A DNA stretch of 64,000 nt from Myxococcota bacterium. GTDB lineage: Bacteria > Myxococcota_A > UBA796 > CAJQPC01. Position 1 is the stretch's first letter. Each line of letters begins with the position of its first letter. This document shows positions 20,161 to 29,040 of the stretch, piece by piece. Both the position numbers and the translations under genes were made by a program. The notes beneath the pieces are model-generated. The model searched no databases. It had not been told where the DNA came from and was given only the letters and a program-made list of their open reading frames with translations. The DNA is taken from NCBI GenBank assembly GCA_036229005.1, contig JAZAMN010000024.1, positions 160,001 through 224,000 of the forward strand, read 5' to 3'.

Positions 20161-21816
20161 TCAGCGCGGCCACTGCTCCAGAAAGCGCACGATCCGGTCG
20201 CCCAGCGGGTCCAGGCGCTCGAAGAGCTCGTGGTCTTCGACATCGGACTGCAGGCGCAGGAAGAAGGCCTCCTCCAGCACCAGGGTGCGGCCCACCCGCT
20301 GGGCGATGCCCAAGGCCTCCAGCACCTCGGCGAGCTGCTCTCCGGTGGTCCCGCCGCGGGGACGACGGGTCACCAGCCAGCCCTGCATGGAGCAGAACTC
20401 GTCCAGCAGGAAGAGCAGATCTTCGTAGCGACGGCGCTTGATGCGCAGGTCGATGCGGGTGTTCTGGATGGTGAGCTGGACCTCGGCCCCGCTGCGGCGG
20501 TGCACCTGGAGCAGCGACACGATCATGGCCAGGTGGGGCACGTGGGCCAGGGCCCGCTGGCGCAGGGTCACCCGGTCGGGGATGGCGCGGCTGCGGGGCT
20601 CGCCGGGGTGGAAGATGCCGCCGTGCACCAGCTCTCGGCGGTCCACCGCGCTGGGCAGACCACCCTCCTTGGCCCGCCGCTCTTCCAGCAGGCGGTTCAC
20701 GCCGGTCACCCCGCCGACCAGGTCCTGCAGCGTGGGGGGCAGGGCGATGACCAGGTCGGTCTCCTCGGTCAGCTCCAGGAAGGGGCCGGTGAGCTCGCCG
20801 GGCTCGGGGCCGGGGTCGTCGGCCAGGGGGAAGGCGTCGATGGGGCGGCCCAGGAGCACGCGGTCCAGGTCGGCGGCCAGGCGGGCCGGGGTGACCTCGG
20901 CGCCGAACACGCGTCGATCCCAGCTTCCGTAGCGCTGCTGGAGCTTGGCGTATTGCATCGCCGCGCCCGGGTGCCCATCGGCCGCTTCCTTCAAGACCTC
21001 CAGGTAGTTGCGGTACCCAGGGTCGGAGAGGGCCACGCCCGCGACCGTGTCCGCCAGGTCCCGCCGCCAGACCGCGCCCCAGGAGACCACCAATCGGTCG
21101 CCCACGCGCCAGCCGTCTCCGCGACGCACCGCCATCTCGACATAGGAGCCCACCGGACACTCCTCGCCGCCGTGCCAGTCCAGCAGGGCCCGGACGTGCC
21201 ACAGCGAGAGCTCCCCGTGGTCCAACAGGGCGCGCAGGAGCACCCGGTAGGCCTCGGGGCTGTGCTCCGGGTTGCCGTGGATCTCCAGCTTGGGGGGGCG
21301 ACGCCGCGGCCGACCCAGGCCCAGGTCGAAGCTGAGCTGGTGGCCCTGGTTGGGCTTGCGGGCGGCGGGGTAGCGCATCGCGGGCTCCAGGAGGGCGCGC
21401 ACCGAGGTCGCTCGGCGGCGGGCGGTGCTGGGGGCCATGTCCGGCACGGCCTGTTGGATGTACTGGGCGATCACCCCGCTCTGGGGGAGCTCCGTGCGCC
21501 CCTCCATGAGCTGCACCACGAAGGGGTTCTGCCAGACCGCGCGCGCGTAGACCCGGGGGCGGTCGCGACCGGCGTAGGCGTACTCGGTACCCAGGCGCGT
21601 GAGGGTGGGGTGCAGCGTCTTCTCGTCCGTCGAGAGCAGCCGCAGCCAATCACCGGCCTGGGTGTAGTAGTTGACCGTCCGGACCTCGCAGTCCAGCAGC
21701 ATCGCGAGGCTACGGTTGTCCCGTACGCCGCGGGCGACCAGCTCGACCAGGCGGGCCAGCAGGCGCACGTTGTTCGCGTTGGGGATCAGGTTCTGGCGCG
21801 GGACCCGGGAGCTCAT
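20161..21816 (-). CDS. Hypothetical multi-winged-helix protein; N-terminus resembles restriction-associated DUF7226-like domain
   Basis: IPNANN...RTVNYYTQAGDWLRLL...LTRLG...STARRRATSV pattern; no nuclease motif seen. Confidence 0.65.
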   Translation of the reverse strand: MSSRVPRQNLIPNANNVRLLARLVELVARGVRDNRSLAMLLDCEVRTVNYYTQAGDWLRLLSTDEKTLHPTLTRLGTEYAYAGRDRPRVYARAVWQNPFVVQLMEGRTELPQSGVIAQYIQQAVPDMAPSTARRRATSVRALLEPAMRYPAARKPNQGHQLSFDLGLGRPRRRPPKLEIHGNPEHSPEAYRVLLRALLDHGELSLWHVRALLDWHGGEECPVGSYVEMAVRRGDGWRVGDRLVVSWGAVWRRDLADTVAGVALSDPGYRNYLEVLKEAADGHPGAAMQYAKLQQRYGSWDRRVFGAEVTPARLAADLDRVLLGRPIDAFPLADDPGPEPGELTGPFLELTEETDLVIALPPTLQDLVGGVTGVNRLLEERRAKEGGLPSAVDRRELVHGGIFHPGEPRSRAIPDRVTLRQRALAHVPHLAMIVSLLQVHRRSGAEVQLTIQNTRIDLRIKRRRYEDLLFLLDEFCSMQGWLVTRRPRGGTTGEQLAEVLEALGIAQRVGRTLVLEEAFFLRLQSDVEDHELFERLDPLGDRIVRFLEQWPR

Positions 21817-21867
21817 GGCGCGATCCTATCCCCGTTCGAACCTTCATGTTAGGTGGAAACAAATCCC

Positions 21868-21896
21868 TTGACATGACAAGAGCTTCGACCTAGTGT
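21868..21896 (+). promoter_or_regulatory. Sigma-70-type promoter
   Basis: TTGACA-17 bp-TAGTGT; GGAGG RBS and GTG 21941 downstream. Confidence 0.7.
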
Positions 21897-21940
21897 TTCG
21901 CTGCCGTGGGCGTCTGCAGCGTCCGCTGGCGGAGGAAGTT

Positions 21941-22960
21941 GTGAGCCGATTGGCCAGCCGCTTGGCGCGCAGAATGGAGCTCGAGAAGACAGGTGGCCAG
22001 CGCCAGGCCGCCTCCTTCGACCCCGACCAGCACTTCCTGGAGGCCGCTCTGCGTGGCCGGACCGCCCGCAAGGTGCGCGCCCACCTGCGCCGCCTGGAGC
22101 CCGTCGTCCTGATGACACCGCGGTGGTCCAACCCCCAGACTTTCCTGGAGGAGATCGCCCTGGACCTGGCCGTCGGAGAGCCCGCCGTGGGCTGCCGCAC
22201 CGTGTCCTTCCGGCCTCTCAAGGGTCGCCGCCCGCCCGAGGCCTGGAGCTTCATCCTCCAGGTTCTGGGCCAGCTCCGCAACCGCCGAAACGTCTCCCAC
22301 CCCCCCATCGTCGCCGATGGCCGCGGCTTCCGCTCCGTCGCCTTGGAGCTGCTGCTCCGGGCCCAGGACGAGACCGACCACAACCTGGCTCTGCTGGCCC
22401 ACGGCGCCGAGTACCTGCCCATCGACGTGATCGAGGACCTGGGCGAGGTCTGGGCCACCTACGTCCAGAGGATCCCGCGGGACCGCCGGGCCACAATGTT
22501 GCTCGCTGGCAGCGTCAACGCCGAGCTCGACCAGGGCAACCCCGTGACGCTGGCCGATTACGGGGAGGCTGAAGCGGCTGCTGCGATCTTCGGACGGACG
22601 GGGCCCACCGCTCGGGCTCACCTGGAGACCGCCGCCCGCTTCTCGGGCGGCATCCCCGCAGTGGTTGATGCGCTCGGTCGAGGTGCTCGGGAGCAAGGCG
22701 CGATGCCGCGCAGCCGGGCTGGTCTGGTGCGCGCTCTGGGCCCCCTGGGCGAAGAGATGCGCATGGCCGTGGACATCGTGAAGGCCGACACCGAGCTGGC
22801 TGAGCGCCTGCAGGCGCTGCTGCGCGGTGAGCCCCTGGTCGAGGTCCCGCAGGTCGACAAGCCCCTGATGATGGCGGGCTTGCTGCGTCGCGTGCGCTTG
22901 CCTGGCGAGGACCGCGTCATGCTGCGGGCCCCCGCAATCGGCGAGGTCGCTGGGAGCTGA
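21941..22960 (+). CDS. Hypothetical protein, degenerate STAND/AAA-like fold
   Basis: VVLMTPRWSNPQT (eroded Walker A), LALLAHGAEYL (eroded Walker B), SGGIP, LMMAGLLRR. Confidence 0.6.
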   Translation: MSRLASRLARRMELEKTGGQRQAASFDPDQHFLEAALRGRTARKVRAHLRRLEPVVLMTPRWSNPQTFLEEIALDLAVGEPAVGCRTVSFRPLKGRRPPEAWSFILQVLGQLRNRRNVSHPPIVADGRGFRSVALELLLRAQDETDHNLALLAHGAEYLPIDVIEDLGEVWATYVQRIPRDRRATMLLAGSVNAELDQGNPVTLADYGEAEAAAAIFGRTGPTARAHLETAARFSGGIPAVVDALGRGAREQGAMPRSRAGLVRALGPLGEEMRMAVDIVKADTELAERLQALLRGEPLVEVPQVDKPLMMAGLLRRVRLPGEDRVMLRAPAIGEVAGS

Positions 22961-22997
22961 GGGTTCTCCGGGCGAGCCCGGAGCCCCCCGACCGGTC

Positions 22998-23495
22998 TCA
23001 GCCCGAGACCGAGGCGCCGCGCTCACCCTGGACGGTGGCGCTGCCCTTGTTGCCGTCGACGTCGACGACAAAGAGCTCGAAGGTCCACTCGTCCGCCGAG
23101 GTGCAGGGCAGGCTGTAGAGGTTGGCCTGGAAGCTGCCCGTGCAGGTGGCCGCGTCGGGGTCGCAGACCACGATGTCAAAGGCCGTGTCGACGGTCTGGC
23201 CGTCCTGTCCCCAGCTCACGCCGTGCTTGTAGGCCTCGTCCTCCTGGAAGGTGTTCCGGGGGACATCGTTGGGGCCCTGCGGGTCGTCGTAGCTCAGGGA
23301 GAAGCTCCAGAGATCGTAGGGGTTGTCGCCGCCCTCGTCGTGGGTGCGACAGATGGCCTCGAGCTCGCTCAGCTTGGGGCTCACGCCGTCGTCGACGACC
23401 TCCTCTGCGGTGTCGGAGTCGATGGGCTCGTCGTCTCCCTTGCAGGCGGTCAGGAGGACAAGGCCGGTGAAGAGGGCCAGGGGGGTGCTGCGCAT
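22998..23495 (-). CDS. Lipoprotein, hypothetical
   Basis: AAGGAG RBS; lipobox LTAC. Confidence 0.8.
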   Translation of the reverse strand: MRSTPLALFTGLVLLTACKGDDEPIDSDTAEEVVDDGVSPKLSELEAICRTHDEGGDNPYDLWSFSLSYDDPQGPNDVPRNTFQEDEAYKHGVSWGQDGQTVDTAFDIVVCDPDAATCTGSFQANLYSLPCTSADEWTFELFVVDVDGNKGSATVQGERGASVSG

Positions 23496-23577
23496 GCGAA
23501 CTCCTTCAGCTCTCTGAAGGGTACCCCACTGGGGCTCGGCTGGCGAAGGCTCTCTGGGCTGGCCTCCGAGCCCAGTG

Positions 23578-23675
23578 TGTATAGTTGGCGATACATGGTG
23601 AAGGAGTGTGTACAGTGGCGCTGAGAAGCGTGTAATCCTGTAGGTTTGGCGTTCACTGTATTCGGTGATCTACAG
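23578..23675. promoter_or_regulatory. Two palindromic TGTA-N10-TACA sites (putative enhancer-binding-protein UAS)
   Basis: TGTATAGTTGGCGATACA 23578-23595 and CTGTATTCGGTGATCTACAG 23656-23675, in an AT-richer tract upstream of a sigma-54 motif. Confidence 0.6.
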
Positions 23676-23751
23676 GTGTTGATGGTCTTGGTGTAAGCAG
23701 GGGTCGTCAAGCGGTTTGCCGCAAGTGCCTGAAATCACGTTTCCAAAAAGT

Positions 23752-23767
23752 TGGCACAGGTCCTGCA
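23752..23767 (+). promoter_or_regulatory. Sigma-54 (-24/-12) promoter
   Basis: TGGCACAGGTCCTGCA vs consensus TGGCACGNNNNTTGCW; predicts TSS near 23779. Confidence 0.75.
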
Positions 23768-23779
23768 ATCTCTTTCTCC

Positions 23780-25345
23780 GACACCCGGCACAGTCCGGAG
23801 GTCAACCGAGAAAAACGCTCGGCACGTTCTTTGACGTTGACATCGCTGATTGTAGACGGCCGCTGGCCACCTCCTGTCGGAGGGACCTGAACTGGAAACA
23901 GAGCAGGGACAAAGTCAGCGCCTTGGGACAGACTCCTCGGAGTGGAAGACCCAAGGGGCCAACCCCGCAAGGCCAGGGCGACCTGGACGAGCGACGGAAG
24001 GCCGGAATCCAAAGCCTCCCTCGGGAGTGCGGAGGACCCAGCCGGAGCTCTTCGGAGCGAAAGGCGCGCTGCAGTCAGACAAACAAGCCCATGGAAGAAT
24101 CGAGCGGACCTTGGTCGGAAACGGCAAAGGGACGCAACGGACTCTCCCAGCGGAGCAAAGCCTTGGAGCCGCGAGAGCAGACCCCCTCGGGGGAACGCTC
24201 AGGACACAAGCCGGAGACGGCGGGTGTCCAAGTCGCCCAGACAGGACGGGAAACCAGCCTGACACGGCGGCGGGAACGGCAAGAGGGAAGCGCGGGTGCG
24301 GTGACGCATCGGCGGCTGCTGGAGAGGGAAAGTCTTTGAAGGGTCAGCGCTGCGGAAGCGCCAGGGACCGAGGCACCGAAAGGTGGGTCGGCAAGGGAGC
24401 CTCCTTTTGGGGGTGAACGGAACTGGAGCGGGAACGCAGCGAACCTCATGACCGGTAGCAGGATGCAACAAGCCTGCAGACCAGATGCTGATGCCGCCAA
24501 GGAGCTGAGAAAGCTCAAGGCAGCGCGAGCCCGACCTGGCAAGGAAGGGACAAAGCATGGACGAGCGACGCGGAGCCAGCGATGGCGAAGCGGAGCGGCA
24601 GTCGGAGACGGCTGTTGGGGTCGGAATGGCGTCGAGGCCACCCGGCACACACCCAAGACCATGTGGGAGCAGGCATCGCTGGAGAGAAGCCGACTGGAGA
24701 CAGTCTGAGGACAGCCAGCTTGGGTCCAGGAGAGACGGAGTCTGGAGAGCGCGCAGGCAGCGGAGTCGGCAACGACTCAGGCGCAGCGTGAACAAAGGCA
24801 CCGAACAGCCAGGACCGACGGTGACATCGGTGGAGAGGCGGAGAAACCCTCGGAGGAGGAGCAGGCGAGAGCGGACGACAGGACGCACTCACAGGCAAGC
24901 GAAAGAAAGGTCCTCGGACCCGGAGAGCGCCGGCTGCCGGCTCAGGAAACTTGGAAGAGTCTCCAAAGGAGGCGCCCAAGGACAGAAGGACGCAGCATCT
25001 TCGGATGCACAGCGGACTGCGAGAGAGACCTTGAAGGTCCCACCGAATCAACGCGAATCAAACCGCGTCGGTGAAGGCCAGGAAGGGACGCGGGAAAGGC
25101 CAACGACCCGCATCGCAGCCCAGGAAGGACAGCAGCAATGCTGGACGGCGACCTTGAGGTTCAGGCGAACCCCACAGCAGGCGTGACGCGGCGACGCGTT
25201 GAGCGCCAAGGTTCCCGTATCCTCCAAGAGGAACCCTCCCTGGGCTGGGTGTCACCTCTCCTTCAACTGCAAGGAGAGGAAGGCAGCAGACCTTGCTGCC
25301 AACCAAGACCCCGAACCGCTTTGCGCGGTTCGGGGTCTTGTCGTT
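23780..25345 (+). ncRNA. Candidate very large (~1.55 kb) structured non-coding RNA
   Basis: No ORF with host codon bias; purine-rich; more than 15 GNRA/UNCG-type hairpins on + strand; 5'/3' closing helix; flanked by promoter and terminator. Confidence 0.8.
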
Positions 25346-25346
25346 T
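25304..25346 (+). terminator. Strong intrinsic terminator, possibly bidirectional
   Basis: Perfect 16-bp stem CAAGACCCCGAACCGC-TTTGC-GCGGTTCGGGGTCTTG then TCGTTT. Confidence 0.8.
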
Positions 25347-25477
25347 CGGGGCCCACCGCTCCGCCACCGCAGTGCAAACCCACCCCGACCCCCAGAGCAC
25401 AAACGAGGACACCCTCAGGATGTCCTCGCTTGCGGATCGGGTGCACAGGTGTGCGGGGGCCCAGGACCCTGGGCGGT

Positions 25478-27649
<2,172 letters not shown>

Positions 27650-27704
27650 CGAGTCTCCTCGGGAGAGTTTGGGGACCAAGGGGTATCACGCCCGGCGCGG
27701 GGAT

Positions 27705-28937
27705 TCAGATGACCATCGCCTCGGCGCTGCGGAACTCGCGATCGATCTGGAAGACCCCGAGGCTGGCCTGCTCGCCGAGGACGGTGACATGGTCGATTGA
27801 ACGCCCGGCTTCAGCCAGGGCGGTGCAGACCTTGGCGGAGAAGGGGCCGAACATCGCGCCGTGTCCGGAGAAGCCCACCAGCCGGATCAGGTTCCGGGTG
27901 TTGGGGTCGAAGTCCATGAAGGGGTTGTGGTCGGGGGTGGTCCCGTAGAACCCGGCCGTGGTGGCGGAGATCCCCTTGAACTCGCCGACGGGGGGCAGGA
28001 CCTCGGCCAGGGCCATCCAGGTCTCGAAGGGGCGCGCGTCGGCCCCGGAGCGGTGGAAGAACTCGGGCTGCACGGAGTCCTGGTCTTCGTAGGAGAAGTC
28101 GGCGGACTGGTCGGGCGCCGCGTGCTTCCACCCGATCATCAGCGAGCCCGCGTTCTCGGGGCGGCAGTAGGCCCCCGACGGCGAGATCACCAGGGGCATG
28201 GACAGGAGCTGCTCGGCGCTCATGGCCTGGTCGTCGCGCTCCAGGAACCACAGGTAGCGCTTGAGGGCGGCCACGGGCAGCGCCTTGGCCCCCAGGATGT
28301 CACCGAGGCGCCGGCTCCAGGCGTTCGTGCAGTCCACGAACAGGTCGGCCGACAGGGTCTCGCCCTTGGCCGTGGTGACGCTCAGCAGGCGGTCACCTGC
28401 GCGCTCCGCCGAGACCACAGCGCTGTTCATCTTGAGGGTGCCGCCCCGCTGACGGAGCCCCTGGGCGGCCTCGTTGTAGAGCACCTCGGGCCTCAAGAAG
28501 CCATCGCTCGGGCACCAGGTCGCCCCCCCGATGCTCTCCGGGTCCACCCAGGAGAAGCGGCTCTGGACCTGCTCGGGGCTGAGGGCCTCCACCTCCTTCA
28601 ACCCCCAGGCCCTTTGACTCTCCACGCGGATCCGGGCGCCAGCGAGGACATCGGGGGCGTTGGGCAGCAGGAAGAGGTAGCCATTGGACTGGATGGGCCG
28701 GCCCTCGCCGCCGGTGCGCGCCTGCCAGTCGTTGTAGAAGTCCACGGCGTAGCGCATCCCCAGCACCGTCTCGCGCGTGGTGAACTGCTGCCGAAAGCCC
28801 GCCGCGGTGCGCGAGCTGGAGCCGGCGCCCAGGTGCTGGGCCTCGAGCAGGGTGACCGCCCAGCCCTGGTCCTGGAGCTGCAGCGCAGTGAGCGTGCCTG
28901 TGATGCCAGCACCGATGACGATCGCCGAACGAGCCAT
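27705..28937 (-). CDS. FAD-dependent oxidoreductase (DAO / sarcosine oxidase beta-like)
   Basis: IGAGITG, GSSSRTAAG, TPDHNP, GFSGHG. Confidence 0.9.
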   Translation of the reverse strand: MARSAIVIGAGITGTLTALQLQDQGWAVTLLEAQHLGAGSSSRTAAGFRQQFTTRETVLGMRYAVDFYNDWQARTGGEGRPIQSNGYLFLLPNAPDVLAGARIRVESQRAWGLKEVEALSPEQVQSRFSWVDPESIGGATWCPSDGFLRPEVLYNEAAQGLRQRGGTLKMNSAVVSAERAGDRLLSVTTAKGETLSADLFVDCTNAWSRRLGDILGAKALPVAALKRYLWFLERDDQAMSAEQLLSMPLVISPSGAYCRPENAGSLMIGWKHAAPDQSADFSYEDQDSVQPEFFHRSGADARPFETWMALAEVLPPVGEFKGISATTAGFYGTTPDHNPFMDFDPNTRNLIRLVGFSGHGAMFGPFSAKVCTALAEAGRSIDHVTVLGEQASLGVFQIDREFRSAEAMVI

Positions 28938-29040
28938 TGAGGACCTCTGCTTTCGCAGAGCCTATCCAACCGCGCTCGCCGGGAATGTCAGAAGGCCCTG
29001 ACGGGTGGTAGCTTGGTCGGAATCCTGTGGAGGTCCCCCC

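Follow-up and report, generated by a model that had tools for sequence, protein, structure and literature searches.

The window analysed here is the whole 64-kb stretch of DNA, and at 23778..25253 of its forward strand lies a large non-coding RNA of 1,476 nt (62% purine), called from contigs in RNA sequencing runs, a conserved core, the lack of frame conservation, and composition. Upstream it is adjoined by a divergent ORF of 165 aa (22998..23495, reverse strand), which has no Pfam match and is lipoprotein-like by eye; downstream, a convergent gene for a 2-oxoacid dehydrogenase E1 of the alpha-beta fusion type (25478..27679, reverse strand) faces it, as it does in genera g1 and g14. No neighbour gene common to the whole family was found. 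The interval from 23778/80 to 25253 is almost certainly one discrete non-coding RNA belonging to a large family, with ends that meet in an interrupted helix and an interior that holds a conserved multi-junction core with variable hairpin insertions.

A protein-coding gene was considered and rejected: no frame was conserved in ten homolog pairs, among which 32 of 344 indels were multiples of three and so kept the reading frame, and the four ORFs overlapping the RNA are without a Pfam match. The stretch has the strongest A-over-T skew within the window, and a genome-wide skew scan found only this RNA and a paralog on contig C8; the purine-skew change point was too erratic for placing 3′ ends. 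The C8 paralog (G000:C8:97256-98929; L014) is full length, with 73% identity over 1.67 kb. ORFs named by eye as alpha-hydroxy-acid-oxidase-like and uvrB-like flank it.

Expression signals and transcription

A sigma54 promoter, TTGGCAC-N6-TGCA, is predicted from sequence at 23751..23767 (forward strand), using the -24/-12 consensus, and places the start at 23778-23780. Both host copies carry a promoter of this type with the predicted start 2 nt before the helix, followed by a hairpin and CGTTCTTTGACG. In the window this boxA-like motif (23825..23836, forward strand) lies at the start + 48 nt; it matches CGGTCTTTGAAAA, found at the boxA position in the host's own two rrn leaders, and the boxA consensuses given in the available part of PMC13753749 are close to it. 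Genes for sigma54 and NusB are present in the host genome, and a boxA following a 5′ hairpin, together with nusB, is what was sought, and found, as the mark of a boxA-antiterminated transcript. Promoter and boxA occur at 25 of 30 genome loci picked by an unrelated internal motif, and boxA in 60 of 80 contigs, again chosen by another motif. An IHF-like word, by the IHF consensus, stands at 23722-23735, 16 nt upstream of the promoter; it is common to the host family, and a rough pattern found it in 15 of 63 copies.

At the other end, the fold gives an intrinsic terminator-like hairpin of 16 bp with a short T-rich tail (25304..25346, forward strand), whose equivalent was found automatically in 44 of 64 copies. 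Some copies differ in their surroundings. Those of genus g14 (L037, L038, L044, L052, L053, L055) have, past the first terminator, another conserved structured segment of ~100 nt and a further terminator; short tandem repeats lie 3′ of the terminator in others (L021, 2100-2600; L032, 1300-1360); and at the 3′ end of L133 the contig continues into the apparent 3′ half of a tRNA, with no whole tRNA by ARAGORN. L037, L038, L044, L052, L053, L055 and L058, which are g14 copies and one from g58, are adjoined upstream by a divergent ORF with a Rho-like N-terminus, as judged by eye, which is curious given the boxA.

As with an rRNA operon leader, a long untranslated RNA has a hairpin and then a boxA-like motif close to its 5′ end, its ends are paired and it has multiple copies; the differences are that no rRNA lies downstream and that the promoter in the host order is of the sigma54 type. 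We propose that transcription would start at this promoter (sigma70-like in several distant classes), that boxA would load the NusB-S10 antitermination complex and so let an untranslated RNA of 1-2.7 kb escape Rho, and that transcription would stop at the terminator. Trimming back to the helix, which would shield both ends, may follow, and the molecule would thus be made like a stable RNA.

Sequence of the stretch was found in sequencing runs on record as RNA (14 rows). Contigs of four runs span at least 23804-25228, their joints and loose ends carrying C8 paralog sequence, and the element is covered by contigs from three RNA studies and one run guessed to be RNA, with both paralogs appearing. 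The flanks at 20500-23623 and 25328-29000 had no contig cover in the four runs; summed depth over the element reached 19,000 in run X1. We did not read this depth as an expression level: the runs had been selected because they contain the element, and the depth of contigs measures expression poorly. A scan of assembled metagenomes gave at least 120 matches, 80 of which were analysed. All 80 contigs are 1.0-2.7 kb long and only two include the promoter; from their extent, we infer that they are RNA assemblies. Contig starts lie 32-43 nt before boxA in 45 of the 60 contigs that have one, and most genomic copies have 44-52 nt from start to boxA.

The terminal helix and the 3′ end

The initial annotation held that the two ends of the RNA pair, GACACCCGGC (23780-23789) with GCTGGGTGTC (25244-25253) over 10 bp with one G-U and GGAGG (23797-23801) with CCTCC (25235-25239) as an extension, and that this terminal closing helix sets the boundaries of a discrete RNA. 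Its coordinates are exact for both, and the reading is borne out: the helix covaries over 18 genera, with pairing kept in homologs that have different end sequences, the predicted sigma54 start is within 0-2 nt of it, and contigs the size of the RNA stop at its 3′ strand. The main helix, P1, has its 5′ strand at 23780..23789 (forward strand), as supported by tests of cognate against shuffled ends. The 5′ strand of the extension, P1b (23795..23801, forward strand), includes the GGAGG, and its cognate pairing exceeds the other-genus mean in 31 of 41 copies. Their 3′ strands occupy 25235..25253 (P1b 25235-43, P1 25244-53; forward strand), where contig-end statistics place the probable mature 3′ end, at ~25253.

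The host's own genome (5.4 Mb) has 59 sites that could pair with the P1 10-mer when no more than one G-U is allowed, which amounts to 0.017 chance partners per 1.5 kb; for a pair chosen post hoc, this rarity gives only modest support. When the whole RNA was folded, P1 was absent from both the MFE and the centroid structure, and comparative evidence was therefore required. In the C8 paralog the G-U is replaced by G-C. For the wider family we took 64 copies with promoter and boxA and retained the 44 with an automatically detected terminator, 20 being dropped as truncated or without one; both RNA ends were set independently of pairing. The best partner of the first 16 nt was the window before the terminator in 27 of 44 copies, vs 2.3 expected, with 70-nt windows, and in 30 of 44, vs 3.3 expected, with 100-nt windows. 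With one copy per genus (18 genera), cognate ends gave ~-20 kcal/mol vs -15.8 ± 0.6 for shuffled ends, a level reached in 0 of 10,000 shuffles in each of ten draws; internal control segments had no cognate-pairing effect, and an upstream control segment had a small one (19-1089 of 5000). Once three copies with doubtful terminators were set aside, cognate end duplexes of the remaining 41 averaged -30.5 vs -18.7, and 23 were better than all other-genus ends. Examples of such pairs are GACAUCCGG/UCGGAUGUC, GGCACCUGG/CCAGGUGCC and GCUGCCG/CGGCAGC. A column-by-column search for covariation, with the 5′ and 3′ end segments aligned separately, detected nothing (best antidiagonal 60% paired), because MAFFT misregistered the short segments.

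More distant loci agree. Among eleven with a terminator, the pre-terminator segment had its best partner 5′ of boxA in seven, four being unclear, and the terminal helices there extend to ~27 bp and abut the terminator. ECF-type promoters were considered for distant copies and rejected, as the stretch in question is the P1 5′ strand and sigma70-like hexamers lie further upstream; such hexamers stand just upstream in five of the seven distant loci with end pairing. On these sequence comparisons, the terminal helix is real and covarying. As a separate observation, CACCCGGCACA (24639-24649), in a variable insert, repeats the 5′ end at 23782-23792, and its region is the second-best partner of the first 16 nt, which may be chance.

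Beyond the helix, the annotation had placed three hairpins in a processable 3′ trailer. The hairpins were found as described, at 25255-25279, 25282-25300 and 25304-25340 (-13.1, -11.4 and -32.3 kcal/mol, respectively). As a trailer, the three are present in the host's genus (five copies) and absent from the rest of the family, copy comparison confining the first two (25255..25300, forward strand) to that genus. The distance from P1 end to terminator is -2 to 6 nt in 33 of 38 copies; the other five, at 48-66 nt, are the host-genus copies only. Processing is suggested by contig ends, which fall 26-46 nt past the final motif in 48 of the 61 contigs with that motif and at 56 nt or more in only seven. 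The median contig end, 35 nt past the final motif, equals the median genomic P1 end, and terminator stems end at 56-79 nt or more past it. We consider it reasonably probable that the steady-state RNA stops at the helix, its 3′ end trimmed back to P1, and hold our confidence at that level because assembled contigs are no map of RNA termini and may break off at strong hairpins.

RNase P RNA and tmRNA likewise have ends closed by a terminal helix, and the likeness drawn earlier to these two RNAs survives as an analogy only. Both identities were rejected: there is no RF00010 match and the genome's real rnpB lies at C31:31989-32440, and ARAGORN returned no tmRNA here, the real gene being at C4:67398-67777. 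The element matches neither model, has no tRNA-like end and no conserved ACC/CCA; of 38 copies, only 10 have the ACC of an RNase P-type end after the helix.

The interior fold and the family

Alignment of 29 copies gave 976 core columns, 187 of them conserved at ≥85%. Covariation was assessed in 81 dereplicated sequences (from 93 with at least six blocks, of 132) against a null that is a home-made tree approximation with 12 replicates. Seventeen pairs covaried at E≤1, of which 13 are Watson-Crick and only six exceed every null value; many lower-ranked pairs stack into the same helices. The features that follow are all on the forward strand. At the 5′ junction (23801..23841), a helix (23801-05/23837-41) accompanies a hairpin (23806-23822), and pair 23804/23838 is 94% Watson-Crick, below the significance threshold. 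A conserved domain at 24087..24344, defined by covariation, comprises two 3x3 purine loops, a at 24091-93/24338-40 and b at 24165-67/24281-83, together with a variable insert and GNRA hairpins (24117-22 and 24300-05); its covarying pairs are 24098/24333, 24149-50/24319-20, 24115/24124 and 24164/24284, with an A·A↔G·G exchange at 24167/24281. The central domain (24443..24840; covariation and shuffles) contains loop c (24448-50/24832-34), a hairpin at 24458-24477 with a G·A↔A·G pair and a UGNRA loop, and another at 24494-24521, which includes loop d and has a UGNRA/GGNRG loop of 7 nt. Its 14 central pairs are 98.5% paired, with two-sided change in 11 of the 14 and 0 of 500 shuffles as good; distant copies agree with the central structure, to which their alignment was fitted. 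The segment 24080-24860 folds with z=-9.3.

In the 3′ part (24847..25231), covariation and window pairing give long-range helices, 24847-57 with 25220-31 (holding a degenerate loop e), around a stem at 25028-25087 with loop f (25033-35/25080-82). Two further covarying pairs, 24842/25234 and 25032/25083, are suggestive (E 1.4 and 2.7). Since 25220-31 is taken by the long-range helix, CCTCC is left free for the 5′ end.

Five well-aligned sites, and probably two or three others, share one 3x3 internal loop, 5′-GRR/RNG-3′ (G·G, R·N, A·A↔G·G). The outer G·G is present in 80/81, 62/62, 68/72, 71/79 and 60/60 sequences at the five sites, the inner pair is A·A or G·G in ≥91% at each, and at three of them the inner pair switches between the two. 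The consulted part of bioRxiv 10.1101/098723 lists trans A·A and trans G·G pairs as isosteric, covarying only conditionally. The word C[CT][CT][CT]GAAG was observed 66 times vs 5.8 ± 2.6. Hairpin loops are conserved as well: GCAA/GAAA at 24117-22 in at least 71 of 81 sequences, GUGA at 24300-05, and two that are T-loop-like. The central one of these is UGNRA in 65 and CGNRA in 15 of 81 sequences; the second, of 7 nt, shows U·A↔G·G covariation (UGNRA in 38, GGNRG in 31).

Promoter plus boxA, sought as one pattern, occurred in 49 of 154 genomes of the order (reversed control 0), with many matches at contig ends and up to four in some genomes. A covariance model of the central core matched 76 of 151 genomes of the order, including 32 of 61 of high quality, and none of the ten of family f2. 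Roughly half of the order's genomes, 29 of the 61 of high quality among them, gave no match to the RNA, which is therefore probably dispensable in many lineages. In a sample of the phylum, the same model matched 30 of 151 genomes, 18 of them outside the order, and a second model matched 35 of 151, three weakly; with the latter, families f14 (0/11), f18 (0/15), f24 (0/8) and f30 (0/10) had no match. The lengths of 44 copies range from 992 to 2,707 nt, and there are up to six model matches per genome. Among individual loci, L258 (G047:C1:2184300-2190600) has near-identical tandem copies 1.9 kb apart in a two-contig genome, G031:C29 has two equal-scoring copies 3.6 kb apart, and the copy L031/L051 (G008:C55), intact in body and 3′ end and without promoter, 5′ strand and boxA, is probably 5′-truncated. 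The family is spread through uncultured relatives of the myxobacteria, every one of the 30 named genome matches being an uncultured assembly, and is seemingly undescribed.

Possible functions and relation to known RNAs

When identical loops with homo-purine pairs recur, the simplest interpretation is that one protein binds them in many copies. By analogy, we favour reading this abundant, stable RNA as a multivalent RNP scaffold or a sponge for a small protein, and give that reading somewhat less than an even chance. With five to eight such sites, the RNA would take up several copies of the protein, each in the widened groove of a 3x3 loop, as modelled on the purine-rich loops of the HIV RRE that bind Rev. 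In the RRE, too, protein sites are repeated, as several internal loops that are rich in purines and include a G·G pair (PMC4488727, available part); the parallel is one of motif, with no homology, and the myxobacterial loop is a symmetric 3x3 that holds two homo-purine pairs. A protein that binds the RNA was not found. Hfq did not rise above cut-off in five carriers, TROVE/Ro60, the protein of the Y RNA system, was not found in the host (G000) and was found in both of two other carriers tested, and a vault search matched nothing, controls included.

The 3x3 loops could equally be RNA-RNA docking sites, conserved GNRA loops being present, and the main rival to a protein scaffold is an ornate RNA that oligomerises, free of protein, into a ROOL-, GOLLD- or OLE-like cage or particle, its repeated loops acting as GNRA or T-loop receptors. 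This we regard as possible and rather unlikely. GOLLD and ROOL are large, ornate, covarying bacterial RNAs in which variable linkers accompany a conserved core and whose function is unknown, and their cages use A-minor and kissing contacts (PMC12286853, available part). The conserved core with variable insertions, the GNRA loops and the purine-rich junctions of the present family would suit such an assembly; however, the top covarying pairs include no significant loop-loop Watson-Crick covariation, and length varies 2.7-fold. A palindromic kissing loop was considered and rejected, since the UGCA loop varies to GAAA and is thus not a kept palindrome. Nor is there the location near phage or tRNA islands typical of GOLLD and ROOL: a search with one motif matched no viral contigs, phages and plasmids gave no match, and 33 loci had no tRNA genes nearby. 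Solved GOLLD and ROOL examples are ~550-830 nt in the accessible portion of PMC12990946, whereas the myxobacterial RNA is 1.0-2.7 kb, chromosomal, and repeats one internal loop. OLE, also chromosomal, is a highly expressed ornate RNA that forms an RNP (PMC3413148, available part); the RNA described here is more than twice as long, belongs to another phylum, is often multi-copy and has no shared adjacent partner gene. Membership of GOLLD, ROOL, OLE or other large RNA families of Rfam was rejected, with no covariance-model match: the window and 14 homolog loci gave no match at gathering thresholds, and the best E in a permissive scan was 0.33. In character the RNA is closest to these large ornate RNAs, being big, abundant and covarying, and it is a member of none of their families.

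The two most conserved hairpin loops, read as T-loops, could instead form an elbow-docking platform by which the RNA stores tRNAs or ribosomes. The UGNRA/CGNRA central loop, the U·A↔G·G covariation of the 7-nt second loop and the rRNA-like expression signals are in keeping with this, but the absence of tRNA genes near the 33 loci is not, and we judge it improbable. The loop pair AGNNA...UGNNA, a pattern taken from the available part of PMC3664808, was not found, the loops here being UGNRA and UGNRA/GGNRG.

Slightly less probable still is a selfish or catalytic element, such as an intron-derived ribozyme or a mobile RNA. Patchy presence, up to six matches per genome, tandem copies and varied neighbours are features that such an element might show; yet the paralogs carry their own upstream promoter, which indicates copying at the DNA level, no intron or ribozyme in Rfam matches even at E≤10, no ORF is conserved, and the neighbourhood is conserved across families.

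CsrB and RsmZ are purine-rich RNAs with a repeated short motif, and a giant sponge of this type for CsrA is largely refuted: GGA is enriched in the window copy (81 vs 56 ± 4.6) and CANGGANG in 18 representatives (32 vs 16 ± 4), but the family-wide GGA excess is small (832 vs 783), the conserved GGA-like words lie in two-stranded internal loops, and csrA is missing from most RNA hosts, being present in only 21 of the 76 genomes that carry the RNA, not found in the host (G000, 94% complete) or three congeners (genus g1), and found in 0 of 49 genomes of family f3, where 30 of 46 have the RNA. The gene is patchy in the order at large (45 of 154 genomes) and, absent from the host's genus, is present in 17 of 21 other genomes of the host's family.

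The RNA is real, well bounded and apparently undescribed. No description of the family was found among the titles and abstracts searched, and a term look-up in the main texts of PMC5737381 and PMC11109978 returned no mention of myxobacteria; part of the RNA may be listed as a candidate motif in supplementary material.

To our knowledge, structured bacterial RNAs above 1 kb are almost only rRNAs and mobile introns. RNA cages and membrane RNPs are examples of the new biology to which the few large orphan RNA classes have led. We think it likely that the protein scaffold proposed here, or an RNA particle in its stead, has at its core an undescribed class of very large bacterial stable RNA, old within the Myxococcota, with rRNA-like signals and repeats of one purine-loop module. 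If true, the class, at 1.0-2.7 kb, exceeds the GOLLD, ROOL and OLE examples in size. Its ORF-free core covaries across classes of a phylum, contigs of the whole RNA recur in public assemblies, and its repeated loop motif was matched to no known one. Members of the family, the shortest of ~990 nt, are ready targets for cryo-EM, and the family is a likely new user of boxA antitermination under sigma54.
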